Source: a virus
Virus record (IMG/VR): IMGVR_UViG_3300027747_004524
Coordinates: 1 to 64,000 of that record
DNA: 64,000 bases
Direction: 5' to 3' (one strand)
Shown here piece after piece: positions 10,254-47,709 of this stretch. The first letter of the stretch is position 1. Every line of letters begins with the position of its first letter. The position numbers were made by a program, and so were the translations under genes. The notes under the pieces were generated by a model. The model was not told the origin of the DNA. It did not search any database and saw only the letters and a program-made list of their open reading frames with translations.

Positions 10254-11608
10254 ACGGTCTGTTGGATTCCTTCTGATTTATAGTACTCTTGTATTGCCCT
10301 AATTAACAAAGACACTGTTTCTTTGATTCCCTTAGAGCGTAACTTGATCTTTTCTTTTGTTCCTCCCCACAATGAAAGGTAGACTGGTGAGTCTTTGCTT
10401 TCAAAGCCAAAGAACTTCAGAACTGTGAAGGCGACTGTCTCTGCGTCGTGTTCTGCTTCTGATCTTGTTATATCTGTTTTCTTTCCTACGAAGTGCATCA
10501 TTTTGTGTGCTATTTCGTGAATTAGGGTTGACGCTTTATTGATTCCATCAAACTTACTGTTTATTGTTACTCCGTGCTTAGTAGCATATCCTCCAAGTCC
10601 GTAGTTAAGATCTTTAAACTCTACAGGTATTTGATTGTCTTCGGCGTACTTTAGAACGCCAGCAATTATTCCTCCCAATTCTTCTACAGGCTCGTTGCTG
10701 TCTTGTCTCCACGAGTGTGGTTTATAAACAGATTTGGCACCAGCTTTTTCTATCGTGTCAGATATGTCATAGACGTATTCAACTGCGTAACTTTTCGGAA
10801 TTCCAAATTGTACTCTTTTCTTTATCTCTTTTTCTTCCCCAGTTGCCTTGTCTATTTCTTTTGATTTCACTATTCTTTGTCTTACGCCTACTGGCCTGAA
10901 TATTATCATGGCGTTTTTTTCTCCTTCTGGAGTTACTTGTCTGCCAAGTTCTAGCCATTTTGTTTTGCTTTGTACATCTGTTGCTTCTGGGTTTTGTGCG
11001 TAAATTAGCCACTGATTTCTAGCAGAGTACTGATAAAGCCTGCTTGCCATTTCTAAAAAGTCTTTTATTATTTTACTTTTTTTGGCTTCATCTACCATGT
11101 TGGCTACTTGATGAATTATTGTATCAAGCATTTGCTCTACTTTTTCGTTATCCTCTTTTTTACTTAGTTCTTTTACTGCTTCTAATTCTCCTTTTATTAA
11201 CTGATCAACTTTACTTCCTGTATAGTCTAAAGTTTTTCTGTTTTCTGCATCTGCTTGTGCTTGCTGGGCTTGTTTTTCTCTATCAGAAACTGCCTGTGCT
11301 TTTTTAGCTTGTCCCTGTGAAATGGCTGCTTGTCTATCCATATTGAACAGATCTATTTCTACCCCTACGCTTTTTAGCTCATTTTTTGCATTGTCATCTA
11401 GCTTTTCATATGCAAACCTAGGTAGGCTCCAGCTGAGATCTGGCTTGTAAAACCTAAATCCATATTTTTTAAGAACCTGATATATTTCTTTTGCGTTAAG
11501 TACAACCAAAAAGTCGTATTTTGGATCGTTTTGTTTTGTTGGGTTTGGCGTTAGGAGCGTGCTCGCGGTCTCCTCCGTTAACATCCATTCTTTAAAATTT
11601 AGTCTCAT
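10250..11608 (-). CDS. ArdC-like ssDNA-binding domain plus zincin-like metallopeptidase (polyvalent protein), CTS-like N-terminus
   Basis: YSARNQWLIYAQNPEAT..W..LGRQV (ArdC-N); LIHEIAH and EAEHDAETVAF (metallopeptidase). Confidence 0.85.
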   Translation of the reverse strand: MRLNFKEWMLTEETASTLLTPNPTKQNDPKYDFLVVLNAKEIYQVLKKYGFRFYKPDLSWSLPRFAYEKLDDNAKNELKSVGVEIDLFNMDRQAAISQGQAKKAQAVSDREKQAQQAQADAENRKTLDYTGSKVDQLIKGELEAVKELSKKEDNEKVEQMLDTIIHQVANMVDEAKKSKIIKDFLEMASRLYQYSARNQWLIYAQNPEATDVQSKTKWLELGRQVTPEGEKNAMIIFRPVGVRQRIVKSKEIDKATGEEKEIKKRVQFGIPKSYAVEYVYDISDTIEKAGAKSVYKPHSWRQDSNEPVEELGGIIAGVLKYAEDNQIPVEFKDLNYGLGGYATKHGVTINSKFDGINKASTLIHEIAHKMMHFVGKKTDITRSEAEHDAETVAFTVLKFFGFESKDSPVYLSLWGGTKEKIKLRSKGIKETVSLLIRAIQEYYKSEGIQQTV

Positions 11609-11654
11609 AATATGAATCCTTAGTACTATATATGTTTACATACGGAGGTTTGTA

Positions 11655-11957
11655 ATGATTTCATTCACAGAATGGCTGGCTAAAAAGGGCGTGGTCGAAA
11701 ATGACCTTTACGCCAAATATGATTCCCAAAAAACTGCTTCTGTTGCACAGGCTTTAGCCTCTTCTGGCAACAACCCAAACCCAGATATAATAGCTAAATC
11801 TGTAATGAACGATCCCAAATTAAAAGGAGCGACCCCAAAAGGCCTAAGGCCTGATATGGATTCTATCAAGGGAGAAATATCCTCTTCGTTAAAGAGAAAG
11901 CAGGATGATCTTAAGAAGTCCCAAATGGCAGCCCAAAATGGTCGTTCTGGCCTTTAA
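11655..11957 (+). CDS. hypothetical protein with CTS-like N-terminus (MISFTEWL)
   Basis: GGAGG SD; 100 aa. Confidence 0.7.
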   Translation: MISFTEWLAKKGVVENDLYAKYDSQKTASVAQALASSGNNPNPDIIAKSVMNDPKLKGATPKGLRPDMDSIKGEISSSLKRKQDDLKKSQMAAQNGRSGL

Positions 11958-12072
11958 AGAATGGCTGTACGGAATTAAGAGAGGACACACGCCAGGTAGG
12001 CTTATGTCTACATCTATAAAGCCTGCTAAGCCTTTTATTCCTAAAAGAAAAATAAAATAACTCTATTATTTT

Positions 12073-12654
12073 ATGATTTCTTATTTGGGTGAAGGATTGA
12101 ACATAACTATATCCTGTGACTATTTGCCTGGTCACAATTGGATGTCTTATTTATGTTGGTATTCGATTAACCAAAATTTACCTGATGCCAAGGTAAACAT
12201 TGTTTGTAAAAGGAACAACGTTTCTGGCACTATGTTTTTATGGACTAAAAAGATTGGAATACAATTTAAAATGTACAACGGTTCATCCTGTGAGGAAACT
12301 ATAGAGCTTAGACCAACTGTGATTGTTCCTCCATATTGTATGTGTGTTAGAGATTTTGAAGAATCTGGGTTTGATACAGGCACTATAAAAGAAGGTGATT
12401 TGCTCTATCTGAATGATACGGATTTAGTTTCAAAAGCCTCTTCCGATGATCCATCTTCTTTTTGTTCATACAAAAGAGGTTGGGGCCATTTTATCACGGC
12501 CGATTGGATACATAAGGAAGAATGTCCTTTGTATTTTTTGTTTGTGAAAAAGTTTTCTAAACAAGGTATGTCTTTAAACGAAAGAAAAATTGAAAGCTTG
12601 TGGAATGCTAGTCTAAAGTTGTTCCAAACGATTTCAGGAGGAGTTTTACAATGA
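12073..12654 (+). CDS. hypothetical protein
   Basis: 193-aa ORF in gene-dense context. Confidence 0.65.
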   Translation: MISYLGEGLNITISCDYLPGHNWMSYLCWYSINQNLPDAKVNIVCKRNNVSGTMFLWTKKIGIQFKMYNGSSCEETIELRPTVIVPPYCMCVRDFEESGFDTGTIKEGDLLYLNDTDLVSKASSDDPSSFCSYKRGWGHFITADWIHKEECPLYFLFVKKFSKQGMSLNERKIESLWNASLKLFQTISGGVLQ

Positions 12655-12965
12655 GAAGGTTTGATTTTGATGACGAAGATCCAGATAGAGAGGAAGTAGA
12701 AAGGTTTCTCAACTCCGACTCTCAAGAGTATTTAATTACACCTGAGGAGTATAAAGGAATATTGGAAGAAGAAATGGTTCTTTACGAGGCCAAATTTAGA
12801 GAGACATCACAGAAACTCAAGTATAAATTGCTACTCAATGCCATAGATCTTTCAAAAGGTTCCTTCTTGTGGAAATTTTATTCTTTAAATACTAGATTAA
12901 ATCATATAGAAAAGGTTTACAAAAAACTAAATCTTTTGTTGGAGTTAGAACAAGAAGAAAAATAG
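12651..12965 (+). CDS. hypothetical acidic protein
   Basis: ATGA-coupled; GGAGG SD. Confidence 0.7.
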   Translation: MRRFDFDDEDPDREEVERFLNSDSQEYLITPEEYKGILEEEMVLYEAKFRETSQKLKYKLLLNAIDLSKGSFLWKFYSLNTRLNHIEKVYKKLNLLLELEQEEK

Positions 12966-12972
12966 GTGATTT

Positions 12973-13308
12973 ATTCCAATCTATGACTTTCAGTGCCTTA
13001 GTTGCAATATTATTTTTGATGAATTTACGAGCTACGATGAAACAGGAGGGTATCCCTCTGTCATTTGCCCAAAATGCGGCTCAGATAAAAAAGAAAAATT
13101 AGCTTCCGCTTGCAACTTCAATTTTTCCAACCCTGTTGGCACAGACAGGTGGAATAGTGAGAATTCAGGGCATGACTACAGGTTTAAGCATAACTTGCCA
13201 TCTGTAATCGAGCAGCGTAAAAAAGCAGAGATCGCTTCAAAATCGCCCAATGCCCCCTATAATGAAATTAATGATTTAAACAAAAACGAATCCTGGGACG
13301 GAAATTAA
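12973..13308 (+). CDS. FmdB-family zinc-ribbon protein with apparent ATT start (not in ORF track)
   Basis: (M)PIYDFQCLSC..CPKCGS..; in-frame TGA at 12967-69 leaves ATT 12973 as the only plausible start; AGGTGAT SD upstream. Confidence 0.8.
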   Translation: MPIYDFQCLSCNIIFDEFTSYDETGGYPSVICPKCGSDKKEKLASACNFNFSNPVGTDRWNSENSGHDYRFKHNLPSVIEQRKKAEIASKSPNAPYNEINDLNKNESWDGN

Positions 13309-13325
13309 ATTTTCGATATTGGTTC

Positions 13326-13353
13326 TTGATCTAGATCTTTTTATTCCTATAAT
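13326..13353 (+). promoter_or_regulatory. sigma70-type promoter upstream of prkA
   Basis: TTGATC-16 nt-TATAAT. Confidence 0.6.
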
Positions 13354-13374
13354 TAGTTGGTACCGGAGGACAAT

Positions 13375-15456
13375 ATGACTGACACGCTAAAAGAAATCAT
13401 CAACAGTTTCAACAAAGAACAGTTTCAAACATTAAACACTGAAATGAGTTTCAGTGAATATTTGGACTTGGTCAAGCAAAAGCCTTCTCTGCTTAGAAAC
13501 TCATGGCAGAATATTTATGAAATGATAATGGAGAAGGGCAGCAAGACTGTCGAAGAATATAGAAAGACCTATGTTCACTATAACTTTTTTGACGACTGTG
13601 ATCTACCAATTGTCGGCTTGACTCCTATGAAGGATGCTCTAGTAAAGTTTATCAAGGGAGCCGCTGGTGGGTACGGCACAGAGCGAAGAATCCTTTTGCT
13701 TCACGGCCCAGTGGGAAGCTCTAAGTCAACAATATGCAGACTAATAAAGAGAGGTCTTGAAAGGTTCTCTAAGACCGATAACGGTGCTTGGTATTCCTTT
13801 AAATGGGTAAATCTACCCACAGGTGCAGATGGTATTTATAATGATACAACCTGCGAATGCCCCATGCACGAGCAGCCTCTCAAGCTATTACCACTGGAAG
13901 TGAGACTTCCATTTGTAAAGAAAATTAATGAAATATATGAAGAGTCCCTATCAGATGATAAAAGGTCTGATACTTACACTCTCAAGTGCAATGACGAGCT
14001 TGACCCATTGTGCAAGAAGTTCATGAATGCACTACTTAAGAAGTATGATGGAGATTTAGAAAAAGTTTTAGAAAATCACATCAGAGTTGTAAGGAAGGTT
14101 TACAGCGAATCAGACCGTTGCGGAATAGCAACCTTCCAACCAAAGGACGAGAAGAATCAGGATTCGACTGAGCTAACTGGAGATATAAACTTCCGTCAGA
14201 TTGGTAACTTTGGTTCGGATTCTGATCCAAGAGCATTTTCTTTTGATGGTGAATTTTGTGCTGGGAATAGAGGCCTGATTGAATTTATCGAGGTTTTGAA
14301 GCTCGACACAGCGTTCTTATATGATCTTCTTGGTGCAAGCCAAGAACAATCAATTAAGCCAAAGAAGTTCTCTCAGGTATCAATCGATGAGGCTATTATC
14401 GCTCATACGAACGATCCAGAGTTTCAAAAGCTAAAGAGCAATCAGTATATGGAAGCTTTTAGGGACAGAACCACAAAGATAGACGTTCCATATACTTTAC
14501 GTTGGTCAGAAGAACTAAAGATTCTTGAAAAAGATTATGGTTCTGAAAAGGTCAAACAACATATAGCTCCACACACTTTGGAAATCGCTGCTCTCTTCTC
14601 TGTTCTCACTAGACTTCATGACGATAAAGACGGAAAGATCACACTAGTAGAAAAAGCAGAATTGTATGATGGAAGACTACTGCCTGGTTGGACAGAAGAC
14701 TCTGTAAAAGAAATGAGAGATAAGTATCCTGAAGAGGGTATGTCTGGCGGTGTGTCTGTCAGATACCTACAGGACAAAATATCTAATTGCTTGGCTAACA
14801 ATCATGAATATGTCAATATGTTCATGGTTCTTAACGAGTTGAAAGAGGGCCTAGACAATTGCTCCCTTTTAACAAACAAGGAGCAAGTAGGTAGATATAT
14901 TTCTTGTGTAGATCTAGCTCTCAAGAAGCTAACAGAAATACTTAAAGCTGAGGTGCAAAAGGCACTGGTCGGAGACGAAGATGCAATTATTAGACTTTGT
15001 ACTAATTATATCGACAATGTCATGGCTTATATTAATAAGTCTAAGATCAAGGATCCGATCACGGGTCAAGACCGCAAGCCGGATGAAAGGCTTATGAGGC
15101 AGATAGAAGAAAAGATTCAGATACCAGAAACTGGTGCTGAAGACTTTAGACGCCAGATTGCTGCTTTTATCGGTGATCTAGCTCATAAGAACAAGCAGTT
15201 TAGATGGGATTCAAATCCTAAGCTTAAGAAGGCTCTTGAGGCCAAACTTTTCGAGGATGTAAAGGATACCATCAAGTTGTCCGCACTAAATGTTAGCGGT
15301 GCCACAGTTGTAGACAAAGACATCCAAGAAAAGATCGACGCAATAAAAACAAGACTCATAAAGCAGTATGGCTATAACGAGCGTTCTGCTACAGACGTTT
15401 TGGACTTTGTTGGCGGTATATTTGCTAGGGGGGACTTAGCCGAGTCGGAGGACTGA
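13375..15456 (+). CDS. prkA: PrkA/YeaG-family serine protein kinase (AAA+)
   Basis: LLLHGPVGSSKST, CPMHEQPL, FQPKDEKNQDSTELTG, NRGLIEFIE; GGAGGA SD before ATG 13375. Confidence 0.95.
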   Translation: MTDTLKEIINSFNKEQFQTLNTEMSFSEYLDLVKQKPSLLRNSWQNIYEMIMEKGSKTVEEYRKTYVHYNFFDDCDLPIVGLTPMKDALVKFIKGAAGGYGTERRILLLHGPVGSSKSTICRLIKRGLERFSKTDNGAWYSFKWVNLPTGADGIYNDTTCECPMHEQPLKLLPLEVRLPFVKKINEIYEESLSDDKRSDTYTLKCNDELDPLCKKFMNALLKKYDGDLEKVLENHIRVVRKVYSESDRCGIATFQPKDEKNQDSTELTGDINFRQIGNFGSDSDPRAFSFDGEFCAGNRGLIEFIEVLKLDTAFLYDLLGASQEQSIKPKKFSQVSIDEAIIAHTNDPEFQKLKSNQYMEAFRDRTTKIDVPYTLRWSEELKILEKDYGSEKVKQHIAPHTLEIAALFSVLTRLHDDKDGKITLVEKAELYDGRLLPGWTEDSVKEMRDKYPEEGMSGGVSVRYLQDKISNCLANNHEYVNMFMVLNELKEGLDNCSLLTNKEQVGRYISCVDLALKKLTEILKAEVQKALVGDEDAIIRLCTNYIDNVMAYINKSKIKDPITGQDRKPDERLMRQIEEKIQIPETGAEDFRRQIAAFIGDLAHKNKQFRWDSNPKLKKALEAKLFEDVKDTIKLSALNVSGATVVDKDIQEKIDAIKTRLIKQYGYNERSATDVLDFVGGIFARGDLAESED

Positions 15457-15457
15457 G

Positions 15458-15676
15458 ATGAACAATCATTGGCTAAGTTCTGTTAAAAAGAAAAAGCTCC
15501 TCAGGGCAATTGACGATGTTGGGATGGAGGTTTGGAGTTCAGATGGAACACTTGAGGATCTACTCAAGAGTTTGAATCGTGAACAAAGAAGCTTTCTCTT
15601 ATCAATGCAATTAGCTGATTTCTCTTGCGAAATAAACGATGAAACATTTCGTATAGAGCTAACCTTTCCCACCTAG
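15458..15676 (+). CDS. hypothetical protein inserted between prkA and yeaH
   Basis: 72-aa ORF starting 1 nt after the prkA stop. Confidence 0.6.
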   Translation: MNNHWLSSVKKKKLLRAIDDVGMEVWSSDGTLEDLLKSLNREQRSFLLSMQLADFSCEINDETFRIELTFPT

Positions 15677-15691
15677 TTAAGGAGGTGTACC

Positions 15692-16912
15692 ATTCCTCGT
15701 CGTATAGAAGAAGACCATAAAGACTTTAGAGATGTTGTATCCGGACGTATTAGAAAGGCTCTTAAAAAATTCATTAAGAGCGGCCAAATAGTACGTAACC
15801 GTGGTAAGAATGGCAAAGTCTCCATAACTATTCCTAAAATAGATATACCTCACATTGTCTTCGGAGACAGCGGCGAGGGCGTAGGAAGAGGTGCTGGAAA
15901 AGACGGAGACGTTATTGGCAAAGACCCTAAGCCGGGAAAAGGAAATAGTGCTGGGCAAGGGGATGCCGAAGGTATAACCATAAACCTTGATTTAGAGGAT
16001 GTCCTTAAGTTCATGCAGGACGAACTTAAGTTGCCCAACTTAAAGCAGAAGCCCAATGAAACGTATGATGAGATAAAGGTAAAGTATAACAATATATCCT
16101 TAGTTGGACCAGAGTCACTCAGGCACAACAGACGAACTCTTATGCAGACCCTCAAGAGGCAGGCTGCAGAGGGGACTTTGAACAACCTTTCTCATGTTCC
16201 GGGCTTAAAAGACCCTATAAGAATATTAAAACCAATCAACGAAGACAAAAGATACAGACAATATAACGAAATAAAAATTCCATCGAGTAACGCACTGATA
16301 GTGTTTGCCAGAGACGGTTCTGGAAGTATGGATGCAACTAAGTGCGACATAGTATCTGATATGTGTTGGTGGATCGATACATGGATTAGAAGATTCTATA
16401 CCAGAGTAGACAGGCTTTATGTCTGGCATGATTCTGCTGCTATGGAAGTAGACGAAGAGAAGTTTTATAAGTATCGCTTTGGTGGTGGCACCACCTGTAG
16501 CAGCGCTTTAAAGTTTATTTCAAAGCAATTTGAAAACCGCTATCCACCGAACAAATGGAACATTTATGTGTTTTATTTTACTGATGGTGAGAATTGGGAT
16601 GATGACAACTCTTTGTTTGTATCTACCCTTGCACAAGAGTTTACGCCAAATGTTGTCAACTTCACAGGCATTACCCAAATACTATCCACTATGCAGGGCA
16701 ATAGTGTAAAAAGCTTTGTTGATGATGCCATAAGAAATGGCACTTTGGACAGGGAATATGTAAGAACCGTTTCTATAGGCGAAGGTGGTACTCACTGGTC
16801 CTCTGGGCTTAGTGAAGAAGATCGTAATAAGCAAATTATTACCGCCATAAAGAAACTTCTTGGAAACGTTGAAGTCCCCGATGAGGAGTCCGCAAGCTTA
16901 AGCGAAGAATAA
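15692..16912 (+). CDS. yeaH: YeaH/YhbH (DUF444, vWA-containing) protein with apparent ATT start
   Basis: frame open from TAG 15674-76; AAGGAGGT SD then ATT CCT CGT CGT = (M)PRRIEEDHKDFRDVV; DGSGSM, GGTTCSSA, TDGENW motifs; 406 aa (track shows only the last 299). Confidence 0.9.
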   Translation: MPRRIEEDHKDFRDVVSGRIRKALKKFIKSGQIVRNRGKNGKVSITIPKIDIPHIVFGDSGEGVGRGAGKDGDVIGKDPKPGKGNSAGQGDAEGITINLDLEDVLKFMQDELKLPNLKQKPNETYDEIKVKYNNISLVGPESLRHNRRTLMQTLKRQAAEGTLNNLSHVPGLKDPIRILKPINEDKRYRQYNEIKIPSSNALIVFARDGSGSMDATKCDIVSDMCWWIDTWIRRFYTRVDRLYVWHDSAAMEVDEEKFYKYRFGGGTTCSSALKFISKQFENRYPPNKWNIYVFYFTDGENWDDDNSLFVSTLAQEFTPNVVNFTGITQILSTMQGNSVKSFVDDAIRNGTLDREYVRTVSIGEGGTHWSSGLSEEDRNKQIITAIKKLLGNVEVPDEESASLSEE

Positions 16913-16913
16913 T

Positions 16914-18512
16914 ATGTCAAACAAATTCATGCACGGTTCTCCTATTTTGTTAGGGGACAGCACTGTACCTGGAGTACAGCTTTCTAAAGAACTCAAAGAG
17001 TTAGCCCCCAAGATACTTCAGGCTTGCAGGGATTGGGGACTAGATTTTTATCCAACAGTAGTTCAGCTGCTTACTTATGATGAAATCAGCGAAATTGCTG
17101 CATATAACGGTTTTCCGGTTCGGTTTCCTCACTGGTCCTTTGGCATGGAGTACGAGGAGCTCCAGAGAGGTTATGAGTTTGGGATGCATAAAATTTATGA
17201 AATGGTCATAAATGTTAATCCCTGCTACATATATTGCCTTAGTAGCAACACTCTTTTGGATCATTTGACCGTAATTGCACATGCTACTGGTCATAATGAC
17301 TTTTTTAAGAATAACATTCATTTTAGTGCCACCGACACCAACATGTTGAACAAGATGGCAAATCACGGCACTAGAATTAGGAACTATATTGCCCGCTGGG
17401 GCAAAGAAAGAGTAATTGAATTCTTAGACTGGGTAATGAGGCTTGAGACCTTAATAGATGGTTCCGAAGCATGGGCAGAAAAAATCTCTAAAGATGTGAT
17501 AGTCACAGATCAAAGAAAGTATCGTCACCCTAGAAGGTTGACTGTTGGAAAGGATCGCATGTACATGGATCCTTTTATTAATACAAAGGAATTTAAAGAT
17601 AGAGAGAATGAACGCGTTCAAGAAGAAGACATAGCTGATGAGCTGGGTGTCTTTAAGGAACCTACTAAGAATATTCTAGGATATCTTAGAGACAATGCTC
17701 CTCTCAAGCCTTGGCAAGCGGACATAATCTCTATGTTGTATGATGAGGCCTTATACTTCTATCCTCAGAGGCAAACCAAGGTTTTGAACGAAGGCTGGGC
17801 CAGCATGACGGATAGCGTTATTATGGCTGAGCAAGGCTTTGTTTCCTTAGGCCAAAAAGGGCATGATTGTGGAATTATAGAATACTCCGATCACAAGATG
17901 GGCGTCCTAGGTGGCAAGTATTCTACAAATCCATATAAGCTGGGATACTACCTTCTCTCAGATATTAGGGAACGTTGGGACAAAGGCAGGTTCGGCACAG
18001 AGTGGGAGGACTGCAAGGATCTTCACCAAAAAGAAAATTGGGACTTAAAGACAAACCTTGGTAAAGAAAAGATATTTGAAGTAAGAAAGTATTATGATGA
18101 TCTTACTTTGATACATGAATTCTTTACAGAGGAGTTTTGCCGAAAACAAGAATACTTCCATTGGGTCCATTACCCTAACGGAGAATTCAGACTAGAAAGC
18201 AGAGACTACAAAGAAATAAAACGTCTTCTTATGAGAAGACACATAAACGGTGGTTTGCCTGAAATTAGATTGACTGAGCCAAATTATCGTGGCAAGGGAG
18301 CCATGATGTTAGAGCACACCTATGATGGTAGAACTCTTTATGAGCCGTATGTTTCTGATGTCTTGGTTGCTCTAAGAGCTATTTGGGGAAAAGACGTTTT
18401 CTTATCAACCAAAGATGTTGACGGGAATGAAAAGGTCTATTGCTGTTATGGAACAGACATAGAGCGTGATGTTGAAGTAATTTCTAGGGAGGAGCACCTA
18501 AAAGGTGATTGA
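16914..18512 (+). CDS. spoVR: SpoVR/YcgB family protein
   Basis: RFPHWSFG, KIYEMVIN, AHATGHNDFFKNN, QTKVLNEGWAS, NPYKLG. Confidence 0.95.
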   Translation: MSNKFMHGSPILLGDSTVPGVQLSKELKELAPKILQACRDWGLDFYPTVVQLLTYDEISEIAAYNGFPVRFPHWSFGMEYEELQRGYEFGMHKIYEMVINVNPCYIYCLSSNTLLDHLTVIAHATGHNDFFKNNIHFSATDTNMLNKMANHGTRIRNYIARWGKERVIEFLDWVMRLETLIDGSEAWAEKISKDVIVTDQRKYRHPRRLTVGKDRMYMDPFINTKEFKDRENERVQEEDIADELGVFKEPTKNILGYLRDNAPLKPWQADIISMLYDEALYFYPQRQTKVLNEGWASMTDSVIMAEQGFVSLGQKGHDCGIIEYSDHKMGVLGGKYSTNPYKLGYYLLSDIRERWDKGRFGTEWEDCKDLHQKENWDLKTNLGKEKIFEVRKYYDDLTLIHEFFTEEFCRKQEYFHWVHYPNGEFRLESRDYKEIKRLLMRRHINGGLPEIRLTEPNYRGKGAMMLEHTYDGRTLYEPYVSDVLVALRAIWGKDVFLSTKDVDGNEKVYCCYGTDIERDVEVISREEHLKGD

Positions 18513-18736
18513 TTAAAATGGAAAAGAAAACAGAAAAAAATGAATATCTTCTTACCGAAGAGTTTGTCGAGTTTTCACAGAAAATAGCTAAGATTTTTGA
18601 GTCTAAAAAGGCCAAGAAACTTGAACTCAAGACATTTTACGAGAAGATCCAAAATGAATTAAAAGTTTTGGAAGATGAGGCAAAACAGGCCGAGCAAGAC
18701 TTTGAAGCTTTTAAACAAAAGCAAGAAGAAGCTTGA
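18509..18736 (+). CDS. hypothetical coiled-coil protein
   Basis: 75-aa ORF, heptad-rich. Confidence 0.6.
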   Translation: MIKMEKKTEKNEYLLTEEFVEFSQKIAKIFESKKAKKLELKTFYEKIQNELKVLEDEAKQAEQDFEAFKQKQEEA

Positions 18737-18760
18737 CTCACAGACAGTTTTAAATAAAAT
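18733..18760 (+). promoter_or_regulatory. sigma70-type promoter
   Basis: TTGACT-16 nt-TAAAAT. Confidence 0.6.
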
Positions 18761-18781
18761 GTTCTGAACAAGGAGTTCAAA

Positions 18782-19021
18782 ATGAATCGTTTTGATTTAG
18801 AAGACCAGATTCAGGCTTGTTGGAACACAAAAGACGATATAGACCTTTTAGTTGAATCCATAACATCTAAGAGCTTCTCAGAAGAACAGATTTGTGACGC
18901 TTTAAGCGGCCTTTCACAGCTTCATGAAATGAGATGCCAACGTGTTTTTGAAACCTTTTCTTCTCTTGTCAAATGCGGCGACATATCAAGTCCTCAAGTA
19001 GAAGATATCTTAGGTAACTAA
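18782..19021 (+). CDS. hypothetical protein
   Basis: AGGAG SD; MNRFDLEDQI..CW..H. Confidence 0.7.
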   Translation: MNRFDLEDQIQACWNTKDDIDLLVESITSKSFSEEQICDALSGLSQLHEMRCQRVFETFSSLVKCGDISSPQVEDILGN

Positions 19022-19023
19022 CT

Positions 19024-19230
19024 GTGGAAGAAAAGATTAAAAAATTAGTTCTTGATAGATATGGAGTTGAGGTAACCAATCAAACTACAATCTCAGAGAT
19101 TGTAGAAGATAGTCTTAGCAAAATCGAGCTCTTGTTTGAGATAGAAAAAGAACTTGGTCGTTCTTTGCCTCAAGATGAGGTTATAGAAATTGAGACTTTT
19201 GGTGAGCTGATAGAGGTCTTAGAAAGGTGA
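19024..19230 (+). CDS. acyl carrier protein-like
   Basis: acidic 68 aa with EDSLSKIELLFEIEKE (DSL phosphopantetheine site) and IETFGEL. Confidence 0.75.
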   Translation: MEEKIKKLVLDRYGVEVTNQTTISEIVEDSLSKIELLFEIEKELGRSLPQDEVIEIETFGELIEVLER

Positions 19231-19418
19231 GCAACACTCTTCCTCTGGTCAAGATGAGCCAGTCCCATTATCGATCAGAGTATGGTTACTTCTTTCTAGA
19301 ATCAAGTGGCTGGTCTTTTGTTCCCTTCGAAAAGAATCTCAAAGAAAAAGATCTGATTATCATTCTTGAAACGTTAAAATGGATAGAAGAAGGATTGTTT
19401 GATGAGCAGAAATCCTGA
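19227..19418 (+). CDS. hypothetical protein
   Basis: GTGA-coupled ORF. Confidence 0.55.
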   Translation: MSNTLPLVKMSQSHYRSEYGYFFLESSGWSFVPFEKNLKEKDLIIILETLKWIEEGLFDEQKS

Positions 19419-19662
19419 ACTAGACCGTTGGAGCAAGAGCAACAGACGCTCCAAGATTACCCTTCTTCTTTTTTTACTGCTATTCCATGTTTCTCTGCCG
19501 TTTTTCTTTATGTCTTTGCCACCTAAGATTGTGTCTTTTTTTACATTCTTTTTTTTCTTTTTAATTTTACTGCCATTCTTGTATGAAGTTTTTAATGCCT
19601 TTATTTATGAGATTCTAGAAGGTGATTGGGATGGTGTGACAAATAGGTATTATAGGAAATAA
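19399..19662 (+). CDS. small two-TM membrane protein
   Basis: two hydrophobic Phe/Leu-rich segments. Confidence 0.55.
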   Translation: MMSRNPELDRWSKSNRRSKITLLLFLLLFHVSLPFFFMSLPPKIVSFFTFFFFFLILLPFLYEVFNAFIYEILEGDWDGVTNRYYRK

Positions 19663-47172: not shown

Positions 47173-47709
47173 ATGTCTTTTGAAGAAGACCTTCCTGTCA
47201 ACAGACAGATAAGAAGTCGCCAGGTTCGTGTAATTTTAGAAGATAGGCAGCTAGGCGTTTTTCCTTTTGAAAAAGCCTTAAAGATGGCGCAGGACGCCAA
47301 TCTAGACTTGGTAGAAGTTTCTCCTCCTATCAATGGCACCTCAGTCTGTAGAATAACAGATTATGGCAAGTTTAGGTACGAGAAACAATTAAAAAAGAAA
47401 GAGCAGTTGAAAAAACAACGAACCTCTCAGGTGAATCTTAAGGAACTTAGACTTAGACCTGTTATAGGAAAGCATGATATGGAAGTCAAAATATCACAGG
47501 CAAGGAAGTTTTTAGAGGACAACTCTAAAGTACAGTTCAATATTGTTTTCAAGGGACAACGTGAGATGTCTCACAAAGAACAGGGTTTTTCTGTTATTAA
47601 ACAAATTATAGAGAGCCTATCAGATGCTGGTTTGGTCGAAAGAAATCCTAGGCTTGATGGAAACTGTATAACTTGTGTTATTTCTCCTAAAGTTCAGATT
47701 AAGAAATGA
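47173..47709 (+). CDS. infC: translation initiation factor IF-3
   Basis: VNRQIR..QVRVI..QLG..ALKMA..LDLVEV..VCRITDYGKFRYE; KELRLRP..HD..K..FL..KV. Confidence 0.95.
   Translation: MSFEEDLPVNRQIRSRQVRVILEDRQLGVFPFEKALKMAQDANLDLVEVSPPINGTSVCRITDYGKFRYEKQLKKKEQLKKQRTSQVNLKELRLRPVIGKHDMEVKISQARKFLEDNSKVQFNIVFKGQREMSHKEQGFSVIKQIIESLSDAGLVERNPRLDGNCITCVISPKVQIKK

Follow-up and report, generated by a model that had tools for sequence, protein, structure and literature searches.

Two genes of a phage prkA locus with probable ATT start codons and strong Shine-Dalgarno sequences, in a phage that encodes its own IF-3

Results

Two genes of the prkA cluster appear to start at ATT

The window analysed here is the first 64 kb (64,000 nt) of the 122,854-bp IMG/VR virus record IMGVR_UViG_3300027747_004524, which originates from freshwater metagenomes and, as its CheckV completeness is 25%, is a fragment of a huge phage. 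Six genes are located on the plus strand between 12.6 and 18.5 kb of the window, in the order orf104, fmdB-like, prkA, orf72, yeaH and spoVR (Table 1). An earlier sequence-only reading of the window had proposed that two of them, the fmdB-like gene and yeaH, start at ATT, with no ATG, GTG or TTG in frame from the upstream stop to the conserved N-terminus. In both cases the sequence was as described.

In the fmdB-like gene, the TAG that ends the upstream open reading frame (ORF) (12963-65) and a TGA in frame with the gene (12967-69) are followed by TTT and ATT (12973) and then by the codons CCA, ATC, TAT and GAC. The next in-frame canonical codon is situated about 74 codons 3' of the ATT. In yeaH, an in-frame TAG (15674-76) is followed by the codons TTA, AGG, AGG, TGT and ACC and then by ATT (15692), CCT, CGT and CGT. 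The first canonical codon of this frame, ATG 16013, is 107 codons 3' of the ATT. The strong Shine-Dalgarno (SD) sequence that had been reported about 6 nt before each ATT was found as well: AGGTGAT precedes the fmdB-like gene and AAGGAGGTG precedes yeaH, both at an aligned spacing of 6 nt.

The family profiles of both products start at the residue encoded by ATT. With the FmdB-like product, NCBIfam TIGR02605 scored 41.5 bits (cut-off 31.3) and residue 2 was aligned on profile position 2, while the score of Pfam Zn_ribbon_8 (PF09723), 34.2 bits, was slightly below the cut-off of 34.4. The product contains two CxxC pairs, CLSC and CPKC. With YeaH, the score of DUF444 (PF04285) was 207 bits against a cut-off of 27, and NF003711 aligned residues 3-334 to profile positions 3-327. 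The NCBIfam equivalog models scored below their cut-off (313 vs 388) and, therefore, YeaH is referred to as a DUF444 family member and not as an equivalog. The other Met-Pro genes, of which there are eight in the 122.9-kb record, start at ATG, in agreement with the earlier claim.

Assembly error had been named as one explanation that would undo the ATT starts. This was not borne out, and assembly error is excluded for both codons. The contigs of run X2, which come from another sample and another study, covered both sites with 0 differences. The 55-kb contig of run X3, from a third study, had 34 differences in 3.5 kb, none of which was within either start codon or SD. The remaining ATT-bearing contigs were obtained from five further metagenomes.

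Start codons in related phages

The start positions were compared across 40 related viral loci. Apart from the ATT loci named below, the homologous codon was ATG, GTG or TTG, or an ATG was located one codon upstream. PrkA, SpoVR and the small ORF between PrkA and YeaH had an ATG start in every locus. At the FmdB position, ATT was common to the window, L002, L003, L004, L006 and L015, and the other relatives had ATG, TTG or GTG. In all six ATT loci there was no canonical in-frame start from the upstream stop to the ATT. At the YeaH position the relatives had mostly ATG and also GTG, TTG and ATG-TGY, and ATT was detected only in L002, with 97% identity. The sequence-only reading had looked to related phages for conserved ATT and had counted ATG in close relatives against its proposal. 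The two genes gave different answers: the FmdB ATT was conserved in a clade of five members and in L015, whereas at the YeaH position the relatives with 82-86% identity had ATG or TTG.

In the YeaH tree, the window, L002, L003, L004 and L006 formed one clade with the support of 99/95, and L015 was placed outside it, beside L016. L036 has a YeaH identical to that of L016, and its FmdB-type gene starts at ATG. The separate placement of L015 together with the ATG of L036 indicates two or more origins of the FmdB ATT, which all members of one clade have retained. The ATT of YeaH is of a single recent origin inside this clade, the sister loci having ATG (L003) or TTG (L004 and L006).

Within the clade, the pairwise nonsynonymous divergence (dN) of the FmdB-type gene was 0.09-0.40, and the synonymous divergence (dS) was at least 1.5 or too saturated to be computed. 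The low dN combined with saturated dS shows that the FmdB-type gene is under purifying selection. The ORFs were intact and the Cys pairs were kept in the relatives. Despite the saturated silent sites, the FmdB ATT and the AGGTGA SD were unchanged in five lineages.

The FmdB-type gene is located directly 5' of PrkA throughout this phage family. Its product has a C-terminal extension (13120-13305, plus strand) with the motif GTDRWNSE.SGHDYRF.HNLP, which is strongly conserved among the relatives. The zinc-ribbon profile matches stop near residue 52 and the conserved extension is outside them.

Ribosome-binding sites and genome-wide scans

A scan of ORFs and coding scores was run on the 122.9-kb record, resulting in about 167 ORFs. 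The signature consisted of a long coding stretch 5' of the first canonical start and an SD with ATT right after an upstream stop. It was carried only by the fmdB-like gene and yeaH, so the genome-wide search for SD and ATT suggested earlier left these two as the sole convincing ATT starts of the record. SD-like sites of at least 7 nt numbered 64, and only those of the fmdB-like gene and yeaH were followed by ATT at the 6-nt aligned spacing and by a long frame that a nearby ATG does not explain. An SD of at least 7 nt was present at 7 of the 166 canonical starts and an SD of 9 nt at none of them (0/166), and the ATT genes, with SDs of 7 and 9 nt, are at the upper end of this distribution.

Across the relatives, the mean SD-antiSD energies of the FmdB-type gene were -9.7 kcal/mol with ATT and -6.1 kcal/mol with ATG. 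The corresponding values of YeaH were -16.4 and -7.6 kcal/mol. The energies determined for GTG and TTG starts were between those of ATG and ATT or near those of ATT. The trend is that the SD strength increases as the start codon weakens.

Given two such genes among about 167, the chance of both ATT codons being within one six-gene cluster is about 3%, a post hoc figure that is valid for the window and L002 only. An ATT behind AGGTGAT at 18512, just 3' of spoVR, was rejected as a further candidate; in the relatives, the small ORF concerned starts at the ATG two codons downstream. Outside the window, a 73-aa ORF (G000:C1:115276-115497, minus strand) has a possible ATC start, which is a weak case. 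The ATC is preceded by AGGTGA at the 6-nt aligned spacing and is one codon past the upstream stop, and the next canonical codon is a TTG 11 codons downstream with a weak SD.

In the 381-kb relative G005, the scan was repeated over about 524 ORFs. In addition to the zinc-ribbon ATT, two further strong ATT-start genes were detected elsewhere in this genome. One of them, a class-II glutamine-amidotransferase-like gene (GATase_6; G005:C1:45769-46911, plus strand; L054:5769-6911), begins with ATT-TGT-GGx (I-C-G-I-A-G) behind GAGGTGA. As the catalytic Cys must be residue 2, the ATT is almost certainly the start, making this the third kind of gene with an ATT start in the lineage. A search for relatives of this gene returned only the gene itself. 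The other is a 180-aa ORF with no family match (G005:C1; L052:3113-3655, minus strand), in which ATT-CCA is behind AGGAG and 140 codons separate the ATT from the next canonical codon of the frame. Due to these genes, ATT starts are not confined to the prkA locus. The share of ATT-started genes in the lineage was roughly 0.6-1.2%.

Four of the five independent ATT-start events (12973, 15692, L052:3655 and L015:2943) are followed by a Pro codon (ATT CCN), and Pro is the second residue in only about 6-7% of the genes in these genomes. The pattern could be a context effect or chance, the numbers being small and two of the events being in the same gene family.

Other features of the locus

The coordinates of the features are collected in Table 1. 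The intergenic gaps along the six genes are, in order, 7, 66, 1, 15 and 1 nt, and by its layout the cluster looks like one tightly packed operon. For PrkA, an alternative start at TTG 13357 is less likely than ATG 13375.

Table 1. Features of the prkA cluster and the infC gene, in window coordinates
Feature	Position	Strand	Size	Start and remarks
Upstream ORF (orf104)	12651..12965	+	104 aa	Matches no family; its stop, a TAG 7 nt before ATT, overlaps with the AGGTGAT SD
SD of the FmdB-like gene, AGGTGAT	12964..12970	+	7 nt	6-nt aligned spacing; contains the in-frame TGA 12967-12969
FmdB-family zinc-ribbon gene	12973..13308	+	111 aa	ATT at 12973
PrkA (AAA_PrkA and PrkA C-terminal domain)	13375..15456	+		ATG behind GGAGG
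Small ORF (orf72)	15458..15676	+	72 aa	Begins MxNHWL; no family match; TAG stop 15 nt before the YeaH ATT
SD of the YeaH gene, AAGGAGGTG	15679..15687	+	9 nt	6-nt aligned spacing; no other ORF of the record has an SD as long
DUF444/YeaH (YhbH)-family gene	15692..16912	+	406 aa	ATT at 15692
SpoVR-family gene	16914..18512	+		ATG 1 nt after the YeaH stop
Phage infC (IF-3, N- and C-terminal domains)	47173..47709	+	178 aa	ATG

The 72-aa ORF is kept in about 20 related loci, always with an ATG start and with no Pfam or NCBIfam match, and could be an accessory of phage PrkA modules not described before. In L003, L006, L007, L013 and L014, a GC-rich hairpin with a T run was observed about 250-270 nt 5' of yeaH, between PrkA and the small ORF. 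As possible terminators or attenuators, these hairpins may separate two transcription units within the locus. The same interval of the window showed no clear equivalent. In a scan of positions 11500-19500 for promoter and terminator consensus sequences, the sites were not more numerous than in shuffled sequence.

In a megablast search of annotated phage records, the locus had no match. Only distant relatives were found in the protein search, the best of them being an unannotated 595-kb metagenomic phage with 55% identity.

The phage-encoded IF-3

Initiation at AUU and the discrimination against it by translation initiation factor 3 (IF-3), with infC as the example, are textbook knowledge. In bacterial infC, the AUU or AUC start is the target of autoregulation (PMC5499595). 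The claim of the sequence-only reading that IF-3 discriminates against AUU agrees with published work, in which IF-3 selectively depresses AUU initiation (PMC5499595, PMC9723500). Added IF-3 lowered the translation of AUU mRNA by half in extracts from rich medium and by more than 60% in those from minimal medium, and AUU was the start codon most sensitive to it (PMC5499595). Nutrient limitation and guanosine tetraphosphate (ppGpp) also disfavour non-AUG starts (PMC5499595). With the R25A/Q33A/R66A triple mutant of E. coli IF-3, AUU initiation increased about 5-fold (PMC9723500).

The infC of the window encodes an IF-3 with both domains, IF3_N (PF05198) scoring 88.7 bits and IF3_C (PF00707) 92.1 bits, and the protein was aligned over its full length with solved bacterial IF-3s (E = 1e-37). 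Residues R19, Q26, R60 and Y69 correspond to R25, Q33, R66 and Y75 of E. coli IF-3, the fidelity residues in contact with the elbow of the initiator tRNA. The ATG at 47173 that had been reported as its start was found in place, and of the 10 infC loci compared from related phages at least 9 start at ATG as well. The autoregulatory AUU or AUC start was absent from phage infC in the window and in at least 9 of these 10 loci.

Of 32 related records, 10 contained IF-3, and each of these ten extends far enough to include the position about 30 kb past the prkA locus. The carriers with ATG at both genes include G006, G008, G009, G012, G017, G020-G022 and the complete 511-kb G029. The occurrence of IF-3 in relatives with ATG only indicates that IF-3 is a trait of the phage family and not of its ATT-bearing members. 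No co-variation between IF-3 and ATT was found among the relatives, most of the ATT-bearing ones being too short to reach infC about 30 kb downstream.

Among the infC genes of the window and of loci L042-L051, the encoded N-terminus of IF-3 is short and acidic in the two phages of the ATT clade (the window and G005). In other relatives it has a basic extension of 15-25 aa.

Discussion

Interpretation of the ATT starts

The preferred reading, to which a probability of about 0.8 is assigned, is that both genes are genuinely initiated at AUU and that these weak starts set the dosage of the products by lowering translation, partly offset by a strong SD and coupling to the upstream ORF. The codons and their surroundings are read from sequence; a lower rate of translation, a coupling with the upstream ORF and a response to IF-3 would follow by analogy with characterised genes. 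The long SD duplexes (7 and 9 nt), placed at the optimal aligned spacing of 6 nt, would make initiation at AUU workable. The ATT codons are 7 and 15 nt past the stop of the preceding ORF, and terminating ribosomes may re-initiate there. At short stop-start distances, including an infC-like junction, re-initiation provided about half of the translation of the second cistron (PMC3592434). The initiator tRNA mismatches the third base of AUU, and judging from E. coli work the output would be several-fold below that of AUG; the reporter output from AUU was 6-8 times less than that from AUG (PMC3592434). The zinc-ribbon protein and the vWA-type YeaH would be held at a lower level than PrkA and SpoVR. 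AUU starts would also be sensitive to the ratio of IF-3 to ribosomes, irrespective of whether the factor is of host or phage origin, and this sensitivity would be an expected by-product.

Several points weigh against weak starts that are kept for dosage. In the family, both positions change freely between start codons, with ATG, GTG, TTG and ATT all being used. The trend in SD strength comprises few independent events, two of FmdB and one of YeaH. The retention of ATT means that this codon is functional and that ATG has no strong advantage; it is no proof of selection against ATG, since only one of the three third-base changes yields ATG. With a strong SD in place, ATT may be close to neutral. 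The same turnover fits the explanation that ATG drifted to ATT without regulatory meaning, the change being tolerated due to the strong SD and translational coupling, and so do the restriction of the YeaH ATT to the window and L002 and the ATT starts scattered on unrelated genes of G005. Such drift is possible, but is considered clearly less probable than genuine dosage-setting starts: five lineages with saturated synonymous sites all have the FmdB ATT and its AGGTGA SD unchanged, the ATT originated twice in the same gene, and the longest SDs of the genome are exactly at the ATT sites.

That no initiation occurs at ATT, the genes being decaying pseudogenes, fusions with the upstream ORF by read-through or frameshift, or genes read with another genetic code, is highly improbable. 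The 72-aa ORF and YeaH of the window are in the same frame with a single TAG between them, which speaks for this reading. In L002, however, YeaH and the small ORF are in different frames (offset -230), and the in-frame stop before YeaH is a TGA at a distance of 20 codons. A fusion of FmdB with the upstream ORF by a single frameshift was ruled out by the in-frame TGA 3' of the TAG of that ORF, and fusions with the upstream ORFs in general were rejected on frame and stop positions. Further evidence against this reading is a dN/dS ratio well below 1, together with ORFs that are uninterrupted in every relative. An alternative code was rejected, as TAA, TGA and TAG all terminate long ORFs.

The sequence-only reading had further proposed that the level of the phage IF-3 tunes the two genes. 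In its specific form, the phage IF-3, being ATG-started, would escape AUU autoregulation, accumulate during infection and selectively shut the two AUU genes, by which the make-up of the PrkA module would shift over time. The elements of this proposal stood: the ATT starts, an intact two-domain IF-3 with the equivalents of R25, Q33, R66 and Y75, of which the first three, mutated together, raised AUU initiation (PMC9723500), an infC starting with ATG in the window and in nearly all of the related loci, and the published finding that no start codon responds more strongly to added IF-3 than AUU. The two convincing ATT starts of the record are, moreover, in one six-gene cluster. The link between the elements fared worse. 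Relatives in which both genes start at ATG encode IF-3 as well, no co-variation with ATT was found among the records long enough to reach infC, the YeaH ATT is very recent, and the ATT starts of G005 are also on unrelated genes elsewhere in the genome. A switch of this kind is thus regarded as unlikely. Slightly less likely still is that the two genes sense the phage's own IF-3, which, started at ATG and non-autoregulated, would build up during infection and progressively silence both genes, with production of PrkA and SpoVR going on. If true, a dormancy and stress module would be under the control of a translational timer encoded by the virus.

Returning to genuine AUU initiation, a weak start codon that is kept over long divergence and offset by a stronger SD argues that the dosage of the partners of the AAA+ protein PrkA matters. 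Gene callers that accept only ATG, GTG and TTG lose the zinc-ribbon gene and trim 107 residues from YeaH in this phage clade, and annotations of phage PrkA modules are therefore wrong unless ATT starts are allowed. The locus and a phage IF-3 gene lacking the bacterial autoregulatory start are a concrete pair for asking what phage-encoded IF-3 does.

Comparison with known systems

The AUU start of E. coli pcnB keeps the expression of its protein low. It belongs to a different protein of a different organism, and to our knowledge no upstream-ORF coupling has been described for it. At the E. coli thrS-infC junction, the AUU is likewise a few nucleotides past the preceding stop and behind an SD, and the output is expected to drop as IF-3 rises (PMC5499595, PMC3592434). 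In contrast to infC, the AUU genes are here a zinc-ribbon gene and a YeaH homologue, and their dependence on IF-3 would hold by analogy. The classical autoregulatory loop is absent because the phage infC uses ATG.

The nearest precedent for a switch by IF-3 is sigR of Streptomyces, the GTC start of which is repressed by IF-3 (PMC5472188). It is a stress-response gene with a non-canonical start and IF-3-dependent translation (PMC5472188). There the effect was determined experimentally, in a bacterium and with the host IF-3, whereas here the proposed link is to a phage-encoded IF-3.

Phage-encoded IF-3 has been found in huge phages with genomes of several hundred kb, where it is seen as redirecting host translation (PMC7162821, PMC7824862). 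The present infC is similar in being encoded in a very large phage genome, and in the parts of these reports consulted no link of IF-3 to non-canonical phage start codons was found (PMC7162821, PMC7824862). AUU initiation, phage IF-3 and phage PrkA/SpoVR genes are each already known, and the specific link through IF-3 is put forward as a hypothesis.

Comparable modules are known from jumbo phages, for example the Ralstonia phage RsoM2USA, for which PrkA, YeaH and SpoVR but no ATT starts were reported (PMC8504454). The same three genes are thus located in a very large phage in both cases. The present locus differs by the additional FmdB-type zinc ribbon on the 5' side and by the small conserved ORF between PrkA and YeaH.

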